This document shows, piece by piece, positions 274 through 10,332 of a stretch of 10,447 bases of DNA. Source of the DNA: Chlamydiales bacterium (lineage in GTDB: Bacteria; Chlamydiota; Chlamydiia; Chlamydiales; JBDQID01); the NCBI GenBank assembly GCA_047611865.1, contig JBLFWS010000118.1:1-10447 (forward strand). The letters run 5' to 3'. The first letter of the stretch is position 1. Every line of letters starts with the position of its first letter. The notes below the pieces were generated by a model that saw only the letters and a list, made by a program, of their open reading frames with translations, did no database searches and was not told where the DNA came from. Position numbers and translations under genes: made by a program.

Positions 274-1792
274 GTAACTATTCAGGTGGGCAGTAATCTA
301 GGGCGGCCTTGAATAGCCTCTGCAAGAACTTTCCAGATTTTCCATCCCTGCTTACGAGCTGTAGAAATGTAGCTGCGTATACGACAAAACACCTCTCCTC
401 CCTTCAGCTTCCGAAAACAACCAGAGATTTTTTGCTTCAGTTTCACCATTCGGATGTCTTGCTCTCCCTGATTATTTGTGAAAGGGACGGAAAAGTCACT
501 GATAAATCGCAACACGGATTCATGGTGATCTGCAAGACGATCCAAGAGATTCTTTCCCGGACGTCGCTTTCGTTTCCCTTTCTTGCTCTGCGGTAGAGGC
601 GGTAATTTGGTGTGATAAATGAGCCCTTTGAGAACTATTCCTCCATATTCTTCAATAAGAGCCTCTCTTTGGCTTTCCGAGAGACAAGCATCATCAATAT
701 GCTCCTCCACTTCCTTTTTCGCCTTGAGAAGAAAACCCTTCATCTCCTTTGCCCAATCTTCTTTCTCATGCTCATAGATAAAAGTGAGCTCTCGTAAGTG
801 ATGAGCATTACATAGCCCGTGTTGGATATGCTTATAGGTAAAGTAAGGAAACCAGTGATCGTGAATCGCCGTCCCCTGAAATTCGGAGAGAATGTCAAAT
901 GCGTTAATGGCCTCTTTGCCACGCTTAGTATGGATCCCAAAGAAGGTCGCGACTTCTGATGAAGCTACATGTATCCAGTGAAGTTTCTTCTCGCAACGCA
1001 TGCCTGTCTCATCGAAGTGTAAGACCTGTGAGGCAACAAGGTGCGCTTTGAGGTTAACCTCGAATACCTCAAGCTTCTCGAAAAGTCTACGATCAATATT
1101 CACACACGTTCCTGGAGAAATCGCGATTCCAAAGATATCGTTAAGCATCTGGGAAAGTCTATCAAAGGGGAGAAAGTGTTGATGAGAAAAGTAAGCTGCC
1201 AAGGCCTGTATCCGATCTCCATATTGAGTGTAGGCTGTAACATTTCCCGGGAATGAGCCTTTCGAAATGTCCCCACAGCAAGGACATCTCTTTGCCTCAA
1301 TCTGATGCTCTGTCACCTCAATCTTAGGTTCTGGCAAGTCAAAAACCTGACGTCGCTCAACGGGGGCTCCTTCTACCTCACCAAGAGCTACAAGAATCTG
1401 GGATGTACGTTACAATGTGGTCCGGCTCTTGAACTTGTTCAAGCGTTCTTCCCATATGACCATTTTGAGCTCCAGGTTTTTTCCTGATTTTCCTCTTTGG
1501 CTTTGTGTTTTTAAAGGTTTTTTGAGGCCATCACTGCTCGGAGGCTTGCCACTATTTTGAACTATTTTTAGCAACTTGAGCCTCGAGTTCACGTACACGG
1601 TTCATGAGTTGAAGAATCAGTTCTCGAGCCCAACTTGGTAGTGAATTGAGATCATTTTGACTGTTATCAGAGCTGTTGGCATTTTCATTGGATGTCATGC
1701 AGGAAAGTATATCAAATTTTCACTATCCACGAAAATCAAAATTTCGATTCTCTTTGTCACAGCTCCCTTTTCCTAGGGACCTGAATAGTTAC
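274..1792 (-). mobile_element. IS66-family insertion sequence, single-ORF ISBst12-like group, 1,519 bp
   Basis: Perfect 14-bp TIRs GTAACTATTCAGGT (274-287) / ACCTGAATAGTTAC (1779-1792) with GTAA termini; 8-bp TSD; one TnpC-like ORF and no room for tnpA/tnpB. Confidence 0.93.
282..1698 (-). pseudogene. tnpC: IS66 TnpC-like DDE transposase, frameshifted in its 5' part (282-1337 still open)
   Basis: ATG at 1698 gives MTSNEN...RVRELEAQVAKNS. Then an extra base at ~1560 (QNSGKPPSSDG), a missing A at ~1480 (KPGAQNGHMGRTL), and a lesion at ~1381 before EVEGAPVERRQVFDLPEP. Downstream are the CPCCG Zn ribbon and DDE motifs HFDETG / IHDHW / NNQGEQDIR. The TGA stop lies inside the TIR. Confidence 0.88.
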
Positions 1793-2385: not shown

Positions 2386-4554
<2,169 letters not shown>

Positions 4555-4560
4555 TATAAC

Positions 4561-4589
4561 CCCCCGTCCTTTAGGGCGGGGGATATTTT
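4561..4589 (+). terminator. GC-rich hairpin after katG, probable intrinsic terminator
   Basis: CCCCCGTCC-TTTA-GGGCGGGGG (4561-4582) 6 nt after the stop, followed by ATATTTT. Confidence 0.6.
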
Positions 4590-4650
4590 GGATAAGAGTT
4601 TCGATCCCCTCCCAAAGAAACAACTGGGAAAAGCTGCCTTGCCTCAGATT

Positions 4651-4704
4651 TTCAGAACTTTTAACTGGAATAGCCTTGCTGAGAACACAAATTTAAATGG
4701 ATAA
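4651..4704 (+). repeat. Cassette-boundary repeat, copy A (reads FRTFNWNSLAENTNLNG*)
   Basis: 4651-4696 matches 6239-6284 at 39/46 nt without gaps, with mostly synonymous or conservative codon changes. Confidence 0.85.
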
Positions 4705-4709
4705 AAATT

Positions 4710-5216
4710 ATGTTTGAAAAAACTTTGTTATTTTCATTCTTATCAATGATTCTTATATGTTCTGGCTGTTCCCTCAAAACTGAAAACCCAGAAATATTTC
4801 AAAGATTCTCTCCATGTCCCAACAGCCCTAAGTGCGTTAGCAGTGTGAGTTCCAAAAGTGACCATTTCATTGATCCCATAACTTACACAGGCACAGCAAA
4901 TCCCATGGAAAGACTTTCTGAAATTATGAAAGAAATGCCAAGGGTTAAAACTATAACAGAAGAAGAAGATTACCTACATTATGAGGTCCGATCTATATTT
5001 TTTCGCTTCGTCGATGATGTTGAGTTCTCTCATGATAAAAAAGCTGGACTCATACACATAAAATCAGGTGCTGGAATAGGATATTATGATTTTGGCGTAA
5101 ACCGAAGAAGACTAGAAAAAGCCCGAAAAGAGTTTAACAATAGACTTACAAACGACATGCATAATGCCAAATCTTTAATTAATTCCTCACTCATTGAATC
5201 TGGGAAGGACGCTTAA
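4710..5216 (+). CDS. DUF1499-family putative lipoprotein, 168 aa
   Basis: Hydrophobic signal ending in LICSGC; motifs PCPNSPKCVSS, FRFVDDVEF and GYYDFGVNRRR are typical of DUF1499. Confidence 0.85.
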   Translation: MFEKTLLFSFLSMILICSGCSLKTENPEIFQRFSPCPNSPKCVSSVSSKSDHFIDPITYTGTANPMERLSEIMKEMPRVKTITEEEDYLHYEVRSIFFRFVDDVEFSHDKKAGLIHIKSGAGIGYYDFGVNRRRLEKARKEFNNRLTNDMHNAKSLINSSLIESGKDA

Positions 5217-5219
5217 GCT

Positions 5220-5756
5220 CTATTTCACCTTGTTATAAGCCTCAAGAAATTGTTGAAACTTTTCTAAGTGGCCTTCTTTTTTTGACCACTTTTGCAATTC
5301 ATCAAAATTCACCTCGGCAACTTCCAAGCAAATATCAATCGCTTGCTCCAAACCCTGCCTATCTCCCCAATGATAAAAACTGGCAAGACGGTCTTTAACA
5401 CTATCCACAGGACGAAGCATTTTCACAGTACCCATAGCGGTCTTAACATTGGAAAACTTATGAATGGCCTCATCACCCACAGCAACTGGTGGAGAGACAA
5501 ATTCCACAATCCATGGACAGTCTTTATGGCGAAAGTATTTTGAGACTTCTTCAAATTCACACTTTTTTAATACCTTTTTAACCTTTCGAAGATCCTCATA
5601 AGTGACAAAGTCAAGGTCATGAGATTGATACCGATTCTTTGAGTAAATCGTTACGCACGCACCTCCTACTAGAATGATCTCAATTCCCTCTTTCTGTAAT
5701 TCTTCTGACAAATGTCCTGCTAAATCTTCTAAGCTAATATTCTTCCAGTCAGGCAT
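5220..5756 (-). CDS. Putative nucleotidyltransferase (pol-beta superfamily, AbiEii/MNT-like), candidate toxin, 178 aa
   Basis: IILVGGACVTIYS...SHDLDFV gives the GG...DxD NTase signature. The start overlaps the upstream gene's stop (TAATG at 5758-5754). Confidence 0.75.
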   Translation of the reverse strand: MPDWKNISLEDLAGHLSEELQKEGIEIILVGGACVTIYSKNRYQSHDLDFVTYEDLRKVKKVLKKCEFEEVSKYFRHKDCPWIVEFVSPPVAVGDEAIHKFSNVKTAMGTVKMLRPVDSVKDRLASFYHWGDRQGLEQAIDICLEVAEVNFDELQKWSKKEGHLEKFQQFLEAYNKVK

Positions 5757-6091
5757 TATAGAGGCTTTCCTTTTCGTCGAGGGCGTTTTCGATCCGAAAT
5801 TTCATAATACTTTAAACGAAATTCTTCTGGCAAAAATGAATAGGCTTTTTCAAGAAATGCCTTAAGCTCTTTAAGCATTGAATAGCGTGGATTAAACTGG
5901 TAAAGCCTCGTTTTCCCTTGCATTTGACTAACAATAACTCCTCCCTTCTCGAGTCTTTCCAATGCCTTTTGAAAACCAAATAAGGACATTTTGAATACAC
6001 GGCTAAGCTCAGAAGCGTATGTTTTCTCATTCTTTAATAGATAGAATAAGACCTTCTCAATAACAGGATTTCCAAATAAACCCTCAAGCAT
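5756..6091 (-). CDS. Winged-helix (ArsR-like) DNA-binding protein, candidate antitoxin/autoregulator, 111 aa
   Basis: YASELSRVFKMSLFGFQKALERLEKGGVIVSQMQGKTRLYQFNP is an HTH plus wing; basic C-terminus; translationally coupled to the NTase gene. Confidence 0.8.
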   Translation of the reverse strand: MLEGLFGNPVIEKVLFYLLKNEKTYASELSRVFKMSLFGFQKALERLEKGGVIVSQMQGKTRLYQFNPRYSMLKELKAFLEKAYSFLPEEFRLKYYEISDRKRPRRKGKPL

Positions 6092-6092
6092 A

Positions 6093-6141
6093 ATCCACCA
6101 TCTTTTTTGGTTATACTACCAAGATTGTTGGTGGATGTCAA
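6093..6141 (-). promoter_or_regulatory. Promoter and inverted-repeat operator of the wHTH-NTase operon
   Basis: Minus strand TTGACA (6141-6136)-N17-TAGTAT (6118-6113). IR ATCCACCA (6093-6100) / TGGTGGAT (6129-6136) overlaps the RBS and the promoter spacer. Confidence 0.7.
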
Positions 6142-6217
6142 GGCGAAGCAAATAAATCTAGTGTTTCAGATATATAAACCGTTATAAATAAGAATAATAC
6201 ATGTAAGAATGGAAAAG

Positions 6218-6307
6218 AAATGGGGGCGGTTGGACGAATTCAGAACTTTTGACTGGAGTAGCATTGCTGAAAACACGAGGTTAATCAGTTCTATTTTAGC
6301 AGCGTAA
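6218..6307 (+). repeat. att-like core plus coding tail, copy B (KWGRLDEFRTFDWSSIAENTRLISSILAA*)
   Basis: AAATGGGGGCGGTTGGAC (6218-6235) matches 7098-7115 at 17/18. 6239-6284 matches 4651-4696. The frame is open to TAA 6305-6307, 2 bp from the convergent toxin stop. Confidence 0.8.
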
Positions 6308-6309
6308 TT

Positions 6310-6657
6310 TTACGGGTGGGCTGAAATTGAAATAATTGTAATTTCCTTCTTTTCTGGGCCGTAACACCAAAATACTCTGTAAGCAGCTGGAGTCTTATTC
6401 TGAGCATATGCTTCAAATACTTTTTGAGAAGAATCCCATGGATGCTCAAGCGAGGAATAAGGGTGAGTTTCTAAACCAGGATGTCTTGGATTTTCTCGCA
6501 GGTGTTTTAATGTTTTTCTCACCTGCTTGAAGAGCCCTTCCTGCCTTGAGCTTTTATTTTTTTGCTTTTTCTTTCTTTGAGCTTCTATCGTATTTGCTTG
6601 CTGTTCGAGTTCCAAATAAATCTCTTCAGCTTCATCAGTCCATTCTAGGTCAAACAT
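6310..6657 (-). CDS. RelE/ParE-superfamily-like putative toxin, 115 aa
   Basis: N-terminal FDLEWTDEAEE, LRENPRHPGLETH, and C-terminal YRVFWCYGPEKKEITIISISAHP fit the RelE-fold layout. Lies 15 bp downstream of an AbrB-like gene. Confidence 0.7.
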   Translation of the reverse strand: MFDLEWTDEAEEIYLELEQQANTIEAQRKKKQKNKSSRQEGLFKQVRKTLKHLRENPRHPGLETHPYSSLEHPWDSSQKVFEAYAQNKTPAAYRVFWCYGPEKKEITIISISAHP

Positions 6658-6672
6658 TCAGCCCCTTGTTTT

Positions 6673-6939
6673 TTACTCGTCGTCGTTGCCATTGTCATCC
6701 AAATTAATTACATTTTTCTTTAGACGGCCCTGCTTAGCTTGCTCCAGCCCTTTTAGAACTGACTCTTTAGCCTTCTTGTTTTTGTGAAGCCAAACTTCTC
6801 GTTCTGGTATTATGACTGCTTTTTCCAGAATAAATCGGCCTTCCATTTCTTCAGTTATGATATAACGCTCACCAGCATGTCGAGCACCTAAAGAGACCCT
6901 TCCTTTAGAGTCAACTGTGACATCGCCTAATGCTTTCAT
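6673..6939 (-). CDS. AbrB/MazE/MraZ-like (swapped-hairpin) putative antitoxin, 88 aa
   Basis: VTVDSKGRVSLG...GRFILEK AbrB-type motif; acidic C-terminus (LDDNGNDDE); AAGGAG SD at 6952-6947. Confidence 0.75.
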   Translation of the reverse strand: MKALGDVTVDSKGRVSLGARHAGERYIITEEMEGRFILEKAVIIPEREVWLHKNKKAKESVLKGLEQAKQGRLKKNVINLDDNGNDDE

Positions 6940-6968
6940 AAAAGCACTCCTTTTTTAAAGTTAACTCT

Positions 6969-7014
6969 ATTATAGCACAAGTGGGCAGGTAAGTCAAGTG
7001 GGGCAATCCCACTT
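6969..7014 (-). promoter_or_regulatory. Strong promoter with repeated operator half-sites for the AbrB-RelE operon
   Basis: Minus strand TTGACT (6997-6992)-N17-TATAAT (6974-6969) with extended TGn. AAGTGGG at 6979-6985 and 6996-7002; inverted CCCACTT at 7008-7014. Confidence 0.8.
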
Positions 7015-7100
7015 AAAAAGCAACAGAAAGCTATTTCAGAACGATTAAGTCACTCTTTTTAAAGACAGTATAAAGAAAGATAGGATGATACAAGAGAAAA

Positions 7101-7126
7101 TGGGGCCGGTTGGACTCGAACCAGCG
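7101..7126 (-). other. tRNA 3'-end fragment (T-arm + acceptor strand), att-like site; not an intact tRNA
   Basis: Minus strand CGCTGG-TTCGAGT-CCAAC-CGGCCCC-A: canonical T-loop, one T-stem mismatch, 7-nt acceptor strand plus discriminator. No anticodon or D arm beyond 7126. Confidence 0.75.
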
Positions 7127-7464
7127 CAGACAGATGAAAAAGAAACTGGATTCAGCCTATCGCCTTCTAAACCAAGCAGCGGAAATGCTAAGTTTTAAAA
7201 TCCAAACTCTGTGTATACGGACTTCTGTCTACAAATCCGCTTCAAAACCACAACTCTCAAAAACAAACAATAATCTACAGTTGACATTCCCCTCAAAAGA
7301 GACTAAATATTTTCTTATCAGAGCTAGATGATGTAAGGCACACCTCTCTGAAGGAGATGTGTCTATTTTGGCTACTCAACAAAGACATTACTGGGAAAGA
7401 AAGGTCAATCGTAAAAATCAAGGGTTGAAATATTTAACAACGAATTCGCCTAGAAAGGGGAAAT

Positions 7465-8622
7465 ATGCTTATCGGAGTCCCAAAGGAAAGATTAGAAGGA
7501 GAGCGTCGTGTCGCCATAACTCCAAAAATCTTGTCCAGGCTAAATAAACACAAGTTTCAGGTTCTTATCGAAAAAGGAGCTGGTGATGCCGCTGGATTTT
7601 CTGATGCGGAATACCAGGAACATGATGGTGTAAGTATCTCAAGCCGGTCTGAACTCTTTAGTAAAGCTGATATCATTACTTGTGTCCGTTGGGGATATGA
7701 CGAAGATGATATCAAGCTACTCCGTAAAGAACAAATTCTTATAGGAATGCTAAATCCACATAGCTCTGCAGAAGATATTATGTCTTTAGCAAATCTAGGA
7801 ATTTCTGCATTTTCCCTGGAGTTGATGCCGCGCATAAGCCGATCACAGAATATGGATGCTTTGAGCTCTCAAGCAACCGTTGCAGGATATAAAGCTGCAT
7901 TGTTAGGGGCCGATCAACTGCCGAAGATGTATCCCATGATGGTAACTCCTGCCGGGACAATAACCCCTGCTCACGTTCTAGTAATTGGTGCAGGTGTTGC
8001 AGGTCTCCAAGCAGTAGCTACGTCATTACGTCTTGGAGCTGTCGTTCATGCATATGACATTCGGCCAGAAGTTAAAGAGCAGGTCGAAAGTTTAGGGGCA
8101 AAATTCTTGGAAGAAACCCTTATAGCAGAAGAAAACACAAGCGATAATGGATATGCCCGAGAGATGGGAAAAGAATTTAACATCCGACAGCAAAAGCTTT
8201 TAACAAATGCACTTACTCATACTGATGTCGTTATCACTACAGCTGAAATCCCGGGAAAAAAGGCTCCTGTCTTAATCACAGAAGAAATGCTTAAAAGTAT
8301 GAAAGCTCAATCGATTATCATCGATCTCGCAGCTGAGAGTGGTGGAAATTGTGAGGTTACAAAAGCGGGGAAAACGCTAAATGTTCATGGAATAAAAGTC
8401 TTTGGAGTAAAAAATATAGCTTCTTCAATGGGCCACCATGCCAGCGATATGTATGCTCATAATATTGCGGCTTTTCTTTTGCATTCCATTAAAGATGGAA
8501 AATTTCAATGGAACTTCGATGACGTTATAATTAACGATACGCTCCTCACATATCAAGGAGATATCTATAACGAGCGCGTCAAACACTGGCTAGGCCTTTC
8601 AGAACAAACACAAAAAACTTAA
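7465..8622 (+). CDS. pntAA: NAD(P) transhydrogenase subunit alpha part 1 (soluble NAD(H)-binding domain I), 385 aa
   Basis: IGVPKE...ERRVAITP; RISRSQNMDALSSQA (RQD loop); GAGVAGLQA Rossmann motif; GYAREM mobile loop; DLAAESGGNCE. Confidence 0.95.
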   Translation: MLIGVPKERLEGERRVAITPKILSRLNKHKFQVLIEKGAGDAAGFSDAEYQEHDGVSISSRSELFSKADIITCVRWGYDEDDIKLLRKEQILIGMLNPHSSAEDIMSLANLGISAFSLELMPRISRSQNMDALSSQATVAGYKAALLGADQLPKMYPMMVTPAGTITPAHVLVIGAGVAGLQAVATSLRLGAVVHAYDIRPEVKEQVESLGAKFLEETLIAEENTSDNGYAREMGKEFNIRQQKLLTNALTHTDVVITTAEIPGKKAPVLITEEMLKSMKAQSIIIDLAAESGGNCEVTKAGKTLNVHGIKVFGVKNIASSMGHHASDMYAHNIAAFLLHSIKDGKFQWNFDDVIINDTLLTYQGDIYNERVKHWLGLSEQTQKT

Positions 8623-8642: not shown

Positions 8643-8924
8643 ATGGAAGTTTTTATCTTTACCTTAACAATATTTGCTTTGTCGCTTTTTCTTGGCTACG
8701 AGCTCATCAACAAAGTCCCGCCTCTCCTCCACACTCCTTTAATGTCAGGAGCTAATGCCATTTCCGGGATTACTTTAGTGGGGACCCTGGTTACTTCAGG
8801 ACTTCAATTAACTACCTTCACAACTATTTTAGGCTTTATCGCCGTAACATTTGCTACGGCTAATGTCGTTGGTGGCTTTGGAGTCACTCATCGCATGCTT
8901 AAAATGTTTATATCAAAAGGGTAA
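8643..8924 (+). CDS. pntAB: NAD(P) transhydrogenase subunit alpha part 2 (membrane), 93 aa
   Basis: VPPLLHTPLMSGANAISG and NVVGGFGVTHRMLKMF motifs; hydrophobic segments. Confidence 0.95.
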   Translation: MEVFIFTLTIFALSLFLGYELINKVPPLLHTPLMSGANAISGITLVGTLVTSGLQLTTFTTILGFIAVTFATANVVGGFGVTHRMLKMFISKG

Positions 8925-8928
8925 ATCC

Positions 8929-10332
8929 ATGTCCCCAGAGCTTATCAAACTTTTTTATCTCGTCGCAGGCTTACTTTTTGCCGTAGCTATCAAGATGCTT
9001 TCTCATCCTCGCACAGCTGTTAGAGGGAATCTTGTCGGAAGCTTAGGCATGCTTATAGCTGTCGTCGTTACCCTACTGGATCAGCGCATCTTAAGTTATG
9101 AAGTCATTGTTGCGGGAATTATAGTAGGCTCCTTTATAGGAATCTATCTGGCATTTAAGCCGCCAATGACGGACGTTCCGCAAGTGGTGGCCATATTCAA
9201 TGGTTTCGGCGGCGCAGCATCGGCCTTGGCTGTCGGTGCAGCTCTAGAGGAGCTACTGTCCGTAGGACTTGTTGAGGATATCACCCTTCAATTTTCTTTA
9301 GCCGCCCTTTTTTCCTGTCTGGTAGGTGGCATCTCTTTTACAGGAAGCGGTATTGCTTTTCTTAAACTACAGGGCCTCATGAGAGGTAGTCCTATTCTCC
9401 TTCCTGGACGTCATGTAATCAATGCCCTCTTATTAGTAGCCTGCCTGTATTTTTCGTATGATATGATCCTCAACCCTTCCACTTCCACATCATTCTGGAT
9501 AGTATTTGCCTTGTCTTCACTATTGGGAGTTCTTCTTGTTATTCCTATTGGCGGTGCAGATATGCCTGTAGTAATTTCATTGCTTAATTCCTATTCAGGT
9601 ATTGCAGCTGCTGCTGATGGATGGGCATTAAACAACAGCGTACTCATCATTGGAGGCTCGTTGGTGGGGGCTGCCGGATTTATTCTTACCATGCTCATGT
9701 CAAAAGCTATGAACCGCTCATTACCCAACATTATCTTTGCAGCTGTTGGTCAAGAGATCGCCGGTAGCAGTGAGCAATCGAAATATTATGAAGATAAAAT
9801 TAAACGAGCCTCTTCTGACGACGTAGCTATGATGCTGGAGGGAGCAAGAAAGGTTATTATAGTCCCTGGCTATGGCATGGCCGTAGCTCAAGCACAGTTT
9901 GCCATAAGTGATCTCTCAAGACTTCTAGAGAAAAGAGGAGTAGAAGTAAGCTATGCTATCCACCCCGTAGCAGGTAGGATGCCTGGGCATATGAATGTCC
10001 TTTTAGCAGAGGCAAAGGTGGAGTATGACAAGTTAAAAGACTTAGATTCTATCAATGATGAGTTCAGTAAAGCAGATGTTGCCTTGGTCATTGGAGCCAA
10101 TGACACGGTAAATATCAACGCTCGAAAGAATGATCCTAGCCTTCCTATCTCTGGAATGCCTATTCTTGATGTTGATAAAGCCACTAGCGTCGTTATCATC
10201 AAGCGCTCCCTCAGTGCAGGCTTTGCCAGTGTTCCCAACCCACTTTTTATTGGAGACAACGTTCTTATGTATTTTGGCGATGCCAAAGAACAAGTGCTAA
10301 AGTTGATCAAAACTATAAAAGAAATAGCATAA
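8929..10332 (+). CDS. pntB: NAD(P) transhydrogenase subunit beta, 467 aa
   Basis: Start reassigned to ATG 8929 (MSPELIK), 4 nt after the pntAB stop. Motifs IGGADMPVVISLLNSYSG, AMNRS, VPGYGMAVAQAQ, HPVAGRMPGHMNVLLAEA and GANDTVN. Confidence 0.96.
   Translation: MSPELIKLFYLVAGLLFAVAIKMLSHPRTAVRGNLVGSLGMLIAVVVTLLDQRILSYEVIVAGIIVGSFIGIYLAFKPPMTDVPQVVAIFNGFGGAASALAVGAALEELLSVGLVEDITLQFSLAALFSCLVGGISFTGSGIAFLKLQGLMRGSPILLPGRHVINALLLVACLYFSYDMILNPSTSTSFWIVFALSSLLGVLLVIPIGGADMPVVISLLNSYSGIAAAADGWALNNSVLIIGGSLVGAAGFILTMLMSKAMNRSLPNIIFAAVGQEIAGSSEQSKYYEDKIKRASSDDVAMMLEGARKVIIVPGYGMAVAQAQFAISDLSRLLEKRGVEVSYAIHPVAGRMPGHMNVLLAEAKVEYDKLKDLDSINDEFSKADVALVIGANDTVNINARKNDPSLPISGMPILDVDKATSVVIIKRSLSAGFASVPNPLFIGDNVLMYFGDAKEQVLKLIKTIKEIA

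Follow-up and report, generated by a model that had tools for sequence, protein, structure and literature searches.

How two small operons with unrelated products come to lie side by side between the same short repeats is the question raised by positions 4651 to 7137 of the 10,447-bp stretch of a Chlamydiales bacterium contig (JBLFWS010000118.1; 42% G+C) analyzed here and referred to throughout as the window. A first-pass annotation, made from the sequence alone, had described this region as a tandem series of integrase-less toxin-antitoxin (TA) cassettes bounded by a tRNA-derived attachment (att) core, and had likened it to an integron. The results presented here imply that 4651-7137 probably forms the degraded terminus of small integrative elements arrayed in tandem at an att site derived from tRNA-Tyr. 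They support a view of the window as holding two integrase-less units that arose by tandem site-specific accretion, comparable to cis-mobilizable elements (CIMEs), and that were joined by recombination rather than by duplication. Genomic islands built in this manner are already known; the host group is little studied.

The repeats and the tRNA-Tyr fragment

The two units are delimited by the following elements.

4651-4696, minus strand: tail 1, the P-arm end of unit 1, whose core-proximal 18-22 nt fit the family motif
6142-6217, minus strand: arm 1, the P' arm of unit 1, 47% A on the plus strand
6218-6235, minus strand: core 1, the antisense of the last 15 nt of tRNA-Tyr plus a 3-nt (TTT) flank, and the junction of units 1 and 2
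6239-6284, minus strand: tail 2, the P-arm end of unit 2, which with core 1 makes up a conserved 39-nt junction block
6998-7097, minus strand: arm 2, the P' arm of unit 2, 43% A on the plus strand
7098-7137, minus strand: core 2 and a tRNA-Tyr(GTA) 3' fragment that comprises the acceptor 3' strand, the T-arm, and a portion of the variable arm but lacks the 5' half

The 18-nt core, AAATGGGGGCGGTTGGAC, is found at 6218-6235 with no mismatch and at 7098-7115 with one, at a spacing of 880 bp. A search allowing up to three mismatches returned these two matches and no others in the window, where 0.01 would be expected by chance and none of 200 shuffled sequences reached two or more. The tails are identical at 39 of 46 positions (85%), and their first 18 nt occur at these two places in the window and at no other, compared with 0.03 expected; cores and tails alike are far above chance. 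The A content of the arms compares with 29% window-wide, and the two arms align with each other weakly and with many gaps. The first-pass annotation had reported the cores as 17/18 identical and 880 bp apart, the tails as 39/46 identical, and the arms as A-rich, and on all of these points the mismatch search with its shuffles, the alignment, and the base composition bear it out.

It had also noted that the last core runs on into the antisense of a tRNA T-arm, and the tRNA in question can now be named as tRNA-Tyr(GTA). In a search of a plasmid collection, window positions 7097-7134 were 92% identical to the 3' end of the tRNA-Tyr(GTA) gene on plasmid pS13 of Neochlamydia sp. S13, where this gene adjoins tRNA-Thr. 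Apart from the tRNA match, the whole region gave three short, weak matches inside the toxin gene and no others in that collection, and the junction gave no match there at E ≤ 1. When set against the intact tRNA-Tyr genes of five loci, the window aligns from the variable arm via the T-arm to the acceptor 3' strand, over ~31-40 nt, and is unrelated to the five loci upstream of this part; because the alignment covers the variable arm to the 3' end and likeness is lost beyond it, core 2 is best described as a displaced or truncated tRNA-Tyr 3' fragment on the minus strand.

The junction in other genomes and its candidate integrase

Relatives of the window were collected with the exact core pattern, containing one degenerate position, in one scan of species-representative genomes (596 Gb), which returned 35 loci, the contig of the window itself not being among them. 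By our own arithmetic, an 18-mer with one two-fold position should find ~35 matches by chance in 596 Gb, and in keeping with this, 15 loci titled as other phyla resemble the window over the 18-22 nt at the pattern and no further. ARAGORN, run on the 19 loci with chlamydial, verrucomicrobial, or unnamed titles, placed tRNA-Thr and tRNA-Tyr at the match in eight, two of which are overlapping views of one contig. The junction formed in the window by tail 2 and core 1, here termed type A, occurs 12 times in eight loci from seven metagenome-assembled genomes (MAGs): twice each in L014, L034, L036, and L037 and once each in L016, L018, L024, and L026. L026 is binned as Candidatus Roizmanbacteria and L018 is titled Chlamydia trachomatis from an environmental MAG, labels that may be binning or naming errors.

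Across 13 junctions, that of the window included, a 39-nt block, CCAaTCAAAAGTTCTGAATgCG-TCCAACCGCCCCCA-TtT, is conserved, comprising 22 nt of tail, the 14-nt tRNA end, and TTT. Likeness ends on both sides of this block, and the tail is conserved across genomes for its core-proximal ~22 nt alone. The conserved tail of the first-pass annotation accordingly holds within the window, apart from the want of an outer core at tail 1, and does not hold across genomes beyond these ~22 nt. The possibility that the tail is the 3' end of a protein gene, or that arm, core, and tail together are the end of a recombinase gene, was considered and set aside: two frames look open in both window tails, but the 13 junctions keep 22 nt and no frame.

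The cargo, in contrast to the block, differs from junction to junction, as judged from Pfam matches of the 92 open reading frames (ORFs) of ≥70 aa around type A junctions. AbiEi/AbiEii is encoded in L014, L016, and L024 and a Gp49/HI1420 (HigBA-like) pair twice in L037; L034 carries NADAR, a PBECR2-like nuclease (below the cutoff), and Bro-N, L018 a major facilitator superfamily transporter, and L036 a glyoxalase and an HI1420-like antitoxin. Some cargo ORFs belong to no family, and IS630-type transposases lie inside several units. In L016, positions 4529-16106 form a long island that ends in a type A junction and holds several GNAT, APH, and hexapeptide-transferase genes, an ABC-F ATPase, and an AbiE pair. 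The first-pass annotation had proposed that a tRNA 3' end is the integration site and that the units were joined by site-specific recombination, and had called for a search for further copies with variable cargo; the 12 junctions are the outcome of that search, and the proposal gains from them, since the same junction bounds other cargo in other genomes. Two L034 units, 1.6 and 1.5 kb long and each closed by a tail and a core, come after an intact tRNA-Tyr gene (8311-8392), the arrangement expected from successive insertions at a tRNA. Counting unit 2 of the window, seven units are bounded on both sides (two in L034, two in L036, one in L014, and one in L037); TA-type genes are present in four of them, and an integrase, sought with the Phage_integrase Pfam model and by tblastn with the family integrase, in none. 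In the library searched, no listed paper on chlamydial tRNA islands or tandem islands described tRNA-Tyr arrays in Chlamydiota.

An integrase is found beside the same arm and core in larger siblings of these units. L014 and L037, two contigs of one MAG, each carry a 364-aa Phage_integrase+Int_N gene that starts ~310 nt from the core on the arm side, in the position and on the strand that the operons occupy in the window. The two integrases are 95% identical, and the elements are 92% identical over 4625 nt, with homology ending exactly at the end of the core and 22-nt block; beyond this breakpoint lies an AbiE unit in one element and a HigBA-like unit in the other. A breakpoint that coincides with the end of the block and separates shared sequence from different neighbors is the signature of a site-specific joint, and we infer that the L014/L037 integrase would act on this att site. 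In L018, the N-terminal stump of an integrase adjoins the arm (E 5e-5). The L014/L037 enzyme is a generic tyrosine recombinase, with all NCBIfam matches far below their cutoffs, and the element that bears it also carries DUF3987, a primase-type family. As regards the tRNA and recombinase that the first-pass annotation had hoped to locate, no intact tRNA is present in the window, but relatives have both the tRNA-Tyr gene and the cognate integrase. A site-specific integrase 51% identical to that of L014 is encoded on Legionella adelaidensis plasmid 9 (L038, 904-6068), 4 kb from tRNA-Met, with ATGGGGCA-type motifs after the tRNA-Met and before the integrase gene; judging from this identity, the integrase family is common to another amoeba-associated lineage.

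Two candidate features of the arms were rejected. A second copy of GTTCTGAA inside the P' arms is not general, being present in one of 16 arms together with one weak match, and the putative integrase arm-site motif (A/G)TGGG(A/C/G)(C/T)A, which has two occurrences ~70 nt from the core in the integrase arms of L014 and L037 and single ones in L036 and in arm 2 of the window, against a control rate of 0.07 per 160 nt, is too thin to be more than a lead.

On the outer (left) side of tail 1 there is no core; the family motif stops at ...GTTCTGAA and unrelated sequence follows. From window position 4651 leftwards, the sequence begins AATCTGAGGCAAGG, compared with AATCTCATAGGCAAAA in L034, and after the last, mutated core in L034 (11522 onward) and L037 (11033 downward) it begins AATCTC. 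These short flanks would be consistent with loss of the window's outer core by a deletion of 18 nt; longer flank alignments were not significant.

Other kinds of element are associated with the same tRNA. A longer tRNA-Tyr 3' fragment that starts at the anticodon loop, here termed the type B junction, is found in L005, L008 (11850-11907), L010, L021 (11590-11643), L031, and L036 (6944-6997) and is the mark of a second element class at this tRNA. In L031, titled Verrucomicrobia, a 438-aa tyrosine integrase adjoins the type B fragment. L006 (9800-10980) and L036 (1-7020) are from one MAG, and their contigs overlap at both ends, by 127 nt and by 77 nt, the latter reaching onto the tRNA 3' part. 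These overlaps make them one composite island of ~8 kb with a bounding repeat of at least 77 nt, and the pair is therefore no evidence of an empty-site allele beside an occupied one. The order in the composite is tRNA-Tyr, two type A junctions, and the type B fragment, and at least 23 nt of the bounding repeat lie downstream of the tRNA. On Neochlamydia pS13 (L001, 4928-6003), a truncated frame for a serine "recombinase family protein" reads into the tRNA-Tyr 3' end, and the post-tRNA arm of L008 (10016-10250) is 67% identical to this recombinase stretch over 233 nt; a third kind of element may use this tRNA.

Taken together, these features suggest a mechanism of the following kind. The target would be the last ~18 nt of tRNA-Tyr(GTA), that is, the 3' strand of the T-stem, the 3' strand of the acceptor, and the TTT flank, and a unit would read, on the minus strand, core, P' arm, cargo, P arm (the "tail"), and next core. 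The family tyrosine integrase would recombine the attP of an element (tail-core-arm) with a resident core, which may belong to the live tRNA gene or to a 3'-end copy displaced from it. One core would be gained per insertion, and units would therefore pile up head to tail, with TA modules presumably persisting by penalizing loss. The cores differ at one position, which is G in core 2 and C both in core 1 and in 10 of the 12 other type A junctions; this one difference would fit a crossover 3' of that position, in the 3' part of the core, a placement drawn from a single site. The outer core next to tail 1 would subsequently have been deleted and the 5' half of the tRNA lost in a later rearrangement. 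Owing to these two losses, the array here is probably fixed unless an integrase acts in trans, and the live tRNA-Tyr must lie elsewhere. The units may be open to mobilization in trans.

Cargo of the two units and neighboring genes

Unit 2 occupies one 880-bp repeat period between core 1 and core 2, with a tail and an arm, and contains the following features.

6310-6657, minus strand: P0001, a candidate toxin of the RelE/ParE fold, 115 aa, from its AlphaFold (AF2) model and Foldseek matches in the PDB
6673-6939, minus strand: P0002, a candidate antitoxin, 88 aa, upstream of P0001 and 15 nt apart from it
6997-6969, minus strand: operon promoter, TTGACT-17-TATAAT, sigma-70-like, 11/12

P0001 has no sequence match in Pfam or NCBIfam, and none of its 3741 homologues has a Pfam family; the closest named ones are from Chlamydiae bins. 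Its AF2 model has a predicted local distance difference test score (pLDDT) of 91, and the PDB matches listed by Foldseek are almost all toxins of the RelE/YoeB/YafQ/ParE type, with a modest best E of 1.8e-3 and template modeling (TM) scores of 0.52-0.59 by query. P0002 gave no match in Pfam, the PDB, or PADLOC, is modeled poorly on its own by AF2 (pLDDT 57), and has a weak atlas link (0.79) to AbrB/MazE. Seven of its 30 homologues are on contigs equal in size to contigs with P0001 homologues, which suggests that the two genes form a conserved pair, and a near-identical pair, P0005/P0124 (97%/91% identical), occurs on other contigs. The modeled P0001-P0002 complex scored 0.83, compared with 0.01 for the best of three controls; the mark used for such models was reached by 116 of 157 solved complexes and by 2 of 215 mismatched pairs, counts that are rough since alignments of our own were used. 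The runs agreed in at least 97% of contacts, the partner had a pLDDT of at least 78, and the contacts are made by the C-terminal half of P0002 (residues 42-80). This pass may reflect likeness, as RelE-family complexes have already been solved, but the model supports the binding of P0002 to P0001, and unit 2 is, on these predicted structures, a candidate toxin and antitoxin pair of the RelE/ParE superfamily (type II TA). A possible operator consists of AAGTGGG twice and CCCACTT once within 6979-7014.

Unit 1, of ~1.6 kb, carries genes for a winged-helix regulator, a small nucleotidyltransferase, and a DUF1499 protein.

4710-5216, plus strand: DUF1499 protein gene, 168 aa (Pfam PF07386, E 1.5e-30), between tail 1 and the unit 1 operon
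5220-5756, minus strand: P0003, a small nucleotidyltransferase and candidate toxin, 178 aa (DUF6036, DUF2204)
5756-6091, minus strand: P0004, a winged-helix regulator and candidate antitoxin or repressor, 111 aa, whose stop overlaps the P0003 start
6141-6113, minus strand: operon promoter, TTGACA-17-TAGTAT, sigma-70-like, 10/12

The matches of P0003 to DUF6036 (E 2.3e-4) and DUF2204 (E 6.1e-4) are both slightly below the Pfam cutoffs, its PADLOC match to AbiEii has an E of 0.016, and its nearest atlas clusters are DUF2204/DUF6036, commonest in Chlamydiota. P0004 matches PADLOC PDC-M05A (E 1.8e-9) and, weakly, TrmB and ArsR-type helix-turn-helix domains. Assignment of the pair to the type IV TA system AbiE was rejected: neither PF08843 nor PF13338 was found, the PADLOC AbiEii match stands by itself, the proteins are about half the usual size, and the best matches are to DUF6036/DUF2204 and PDC-M05A. 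A 19-nt inverted repeat (6093-6111/6118-6136) may serve as an operator. The four operon proteins of the two units are mutually unrelated by blastp, as the first-pass annotation had held of the cargoes, and its assignment of a separate promoter to each two-gene minus-strand operon also stands, given that each of these operons is immediately preceded by one of the two best sigma-70-like matches in 4500-7500 and that possible operators are present; the number of such sites in the whole region, 7 compared with 5.8 in shuffled sequences, is not raised. Its claim of one architecture shared by both units has to be given up, because unit 1 has in addition the plus-strand DUF1499 gene between tail 1 and the operon.

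The remainder of the window holds the following genes, identified as ORFs and by comparison of 12 window ORFs with Pfam.

282-1337, minus strand: fragment of an IS66-family transposase gene (351-aa ORF, Pfam scan)
2404-4554, plus strand: katG (ORF and family scan)
7465 onward (to 10332), plus strand: pntAA, pntAB, and pntB (ORFs and family scan)

In the IS66 ORF, the DDE domain is whole and the zf-IS66 domain is reduced to its last 22 positions, and for this reason the ORF looks N-terminally truncated. Upstream of katG are nested inverted repeats, 2049-2073/2170-2194 (25 nt, 88%) and 2077-2102/2118-2143 (26 nt, 85%), which may represent a site for a regulator or else a small mobile element. 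The pntB ORF (TTG start, 8851-10332) overlaps pntAB (8643-8924) by 74 nt, and its true start is probably further downstream than 8851. The nearest relative of PntAA is 71% identical and the following ones are at most 56% identical, from Acidobacteriota, Terriglobia, and others. PntAA is thus uninformative on the taxonomic position of the window, in or near Chlamydiota, which is supported by the tRNA-Tyr match to Neochlamydia, by the chlamydial titles of three of the seven junction MAGs, and by the nearest relatives of P0001 and P0003. The pnt operon begins 330 bp from the tRNA-Tyr fragment, on the side expected for a further island, and from this position pntAB may itself be acquired cargo. 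An Rfam scan of the window returned nothing relevant.

The nature of the array

It remains to be asked to which known systems the array is related. The available text on Islander (PMC4383910) describes islands bounded by tRNA fragments, with tandems among them and with crossovers of two classes, in the anticodon loop or at the T-stem/acceptor junction, to which the type B and type A junctions, respectively, correspond. The window is like those islands in having the 3' part of a tRNA as target, a displaced, co-oriented 3' fragment at each unit end, a crossover of the T-stem/acceptor class, and tandems at one tRNA; core 1, core 2, and the tRNA-Tyr fragment share one orientation, on the minus strand, as Islander looks for in a fragment. 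It is unlike them in that its units have no integrase, whereas Islander, according to the same text, counts tandems solely where each member has its own; its units are also far smaller (0.9-1.6 kb), and the live tRNA lies outside the window. For the streptococcal ICE (integrative and conjugative element) and IME (integrative and mobilizable element) families, the available part of PMC5704250 describes tandem accretion and CIMEs that have kept their att sites and have no recombination genes. The window resembles CIMEs as described there in its retained att sites, in the absence of integration or transfer genes, in its position next to related elements, in tandem, where a target gene has its 3' end, and in its TA cargo, which is common in CIMEs. 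Unit 2 has both att sites, and unit 1 has them in part (core 1, arm 1, and tail 1, the outer core being missing); neither integration nor transfer genes were found by the Pfam scan of 12 ORFs and by tblastn. The likeness ends where descent is concerned: derivation from an ICE or IME and mobilization in cis would hold here by analogy only, the host group is another, and the units are much smaller. The sibling elements showed no conjugation genes. The original CIME papers are reportedly Pavlovic 2004 and Bellanger 2011.

With integrons, especially sedentary chromosomal ones, the array shares small, variable units that are often TA or defense genes, lie between recombination sites, and do not encode a recombinase themselves, as far as the accessible portions of PMC13108822 and bioRxiv 10.1101/2024.07.02.601686 describe them. 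There the likeness stops. The array has no IntI, attI, or Pc platform, and its sites are tRNA-derived, double-strand direct repeats and not folded attC hairpins; for both junctions and both strands, single-strand folds were no better than those of shuffled sequences (z +0.38 to +1.23). Integron cassettes are mostly promoterless and in one orientation, whereas both operons here have strong promoter matches and the genes of unit 1 are on both strands. On TIGR02249, the model for integron integrases, whose cutoff is 265, the family integrase reaches 47.8 bits. The array is not an integron by any defining feature tested, and the analogy drawn in the first-pass annotation fails as a statement of kind, as what is found is an ordinary tyrosine integrase inside larger siblings, no hairpin, and cargo with its own promoters. 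A further parallel is offered by the pdif (dif) modules of Acinetobacter, moved by XerC/XerD, which the available parts of PMC6449649 and PMC13141974 present as small and recombinase-less, some consisting of a TA pair alone, with short bounding sites and shuffled between replicons. In contrast to their 28-bp Xer sites of alternating orientation on plasmids, as these sources give them, the sites here are direct repeats of a tRNA 3' end and apparently chromosomal, and the likely recombinase is element-borne and not the host Xer pair.

Several observations weigh against interpreting the region as the degraded end of a tandem array at tRNA-Tyr. The window contains no intact tRNA by ARAGORN and no Rfam tRNA match at E ≤ 10, and the intact gene that Islander looks for is present in a relative, L034. 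No third core exists in the window, the tRNA is truncated to its last ~31-40 nt, and tail 1 is coreless. No integrase is encoded in the window, as the first-pass annotation had stated, either among the 12 ORFs compared with Pfam or by tblastn with the family integrase (nothing at E ≤ 1), and the link of the L014/L037 integrase to this site consists of adjacency and the homology breakpoint. The P' arms are not conserved between genomes, and arm-type sites shared by them were not established, the exceptions to the lack of likeness being L014 with L037, the two L034 arms (70% identity over 124 nt), and ~50 nt of an L034 arm with arm 2 of the window. Only three of the seven junction MAGs have chlamydial titles, three others being titled "bacterium" and one Roizmanbacteria. 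The count of no integrase in seven bounded units is biased, as the units were found via the core and those without cores are invisible, and the unit 1 cassette would be TA-like by its gene order and weak family matches alone.

A bolder reading, which we consider unlikely, is that these are cassettes in the strict sense: non-autonomous units of 0.9-2 kb that never carry an integrase, are excised as small circles by the integrase of a sibling element, and are reinserted at any core, stockpiling TA and defense modules as an integron does. The lack of an integrase in all seven fully bounded units is what it predicts, but the core-based search favors units with kept ends. Several units, of 880 bp here and of 1.5-1.8 kb in L034 and L036, barely exceed their cargo, and the core and 22-nt P-arm block is nearly intact in 13 junctions whose surroundings all differ, yet the loci showed neither a circle nor an empty site, nor a unit that recurs identically at two places. 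Two L034 units with different cargo have related P' arms, as noted above, whereas the P' arms are otherwise mostly unrelated, which counts against one shared attP. Similarly, the same integrase element adjoins different units in one MAG, but the L018 integrase stump and the insertion sequence (IS) elements inside several units point to decay. L014, L016, and L037 have arrays with no tRNA in their 10-kb flanks, and from their occurrence away from any tRNA gene the cores themselves appear to serve as targets; in the window, however, the outer core has already been lost. The alternative is that the 0.9- to 1.6-kb units are leftovers of larger elements, and in its favor are the stump next to the arm in L018, the internal IS elements, and the largely unrelated arms. 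It appears doubtful that the tRNA-Tyr 3' end and its displaced copies would be docking sites for recombinase-less, single-module cassettes of 0.9-2 kb (TA, nuclease, NADAR, and others) moved in trans by the dedicated tyrosine integrase of larger siblings.

It is highly improbable that a large serine recombinase placed the units, with a gene that ran across the att site and left arm, core, and tail as the remains of its 3' end. The truncated recombinase frame of L001 that enters the tRNA-Tyr 3' end and the L008 arm that resembles it invite this explanation, and the window arms do align weakly to the L001 stretch; outside the core and tRNA, however, these alignments are short and full of gaps, the enzyme beside the tail-type junction is a tyrosine integrase, and past 22 nt the tail keeps no reading frame across the 13 junctions. 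An origin by ordinary local duplication or as a dispersed repeat (of the miniature inverted-repeat transposable element or repetitive extragenic palindromic type) with a coincidental likeness to tRNA has, if anything, still less to recommend it, for although each repeat has two copies alone in the window, the segments between them encode unrelated proteins, the core matches tRNA-Tyr genes of many loci, core 2 also carries the T-arm, and the same junction joins unrelated cargo in eight other loci, observations that also contradict the ordinary duplication named in the first-pass annotation as the competing origin of the repeats.

The window indicates that tRNA-Tyr and its displaced 3' fragments are an insertion hotspot in this group, environmental Chlamydiota included, and most of the units mapped at the hotspot are integrase-less and carry addiction-type or defense-type genes. 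The 39-nt block also provides a concrete marker for finding such islets in metagenome bins, together with a candidate integrase/att pair. Should the small units prove not to be mobile, the array would be a classic example of a decaying island with TA modules as its residue, whereas units mobile in trans would make it a tRNA-att analogue to be placed beside integrons and dif modules. Were a cassette pool of this kind to exist, it would represent an equivalent of the integron built on double-strand tRNA-att sites, possibly at work in intracellular bacteria with few alternative ways of shuffling defense genes.

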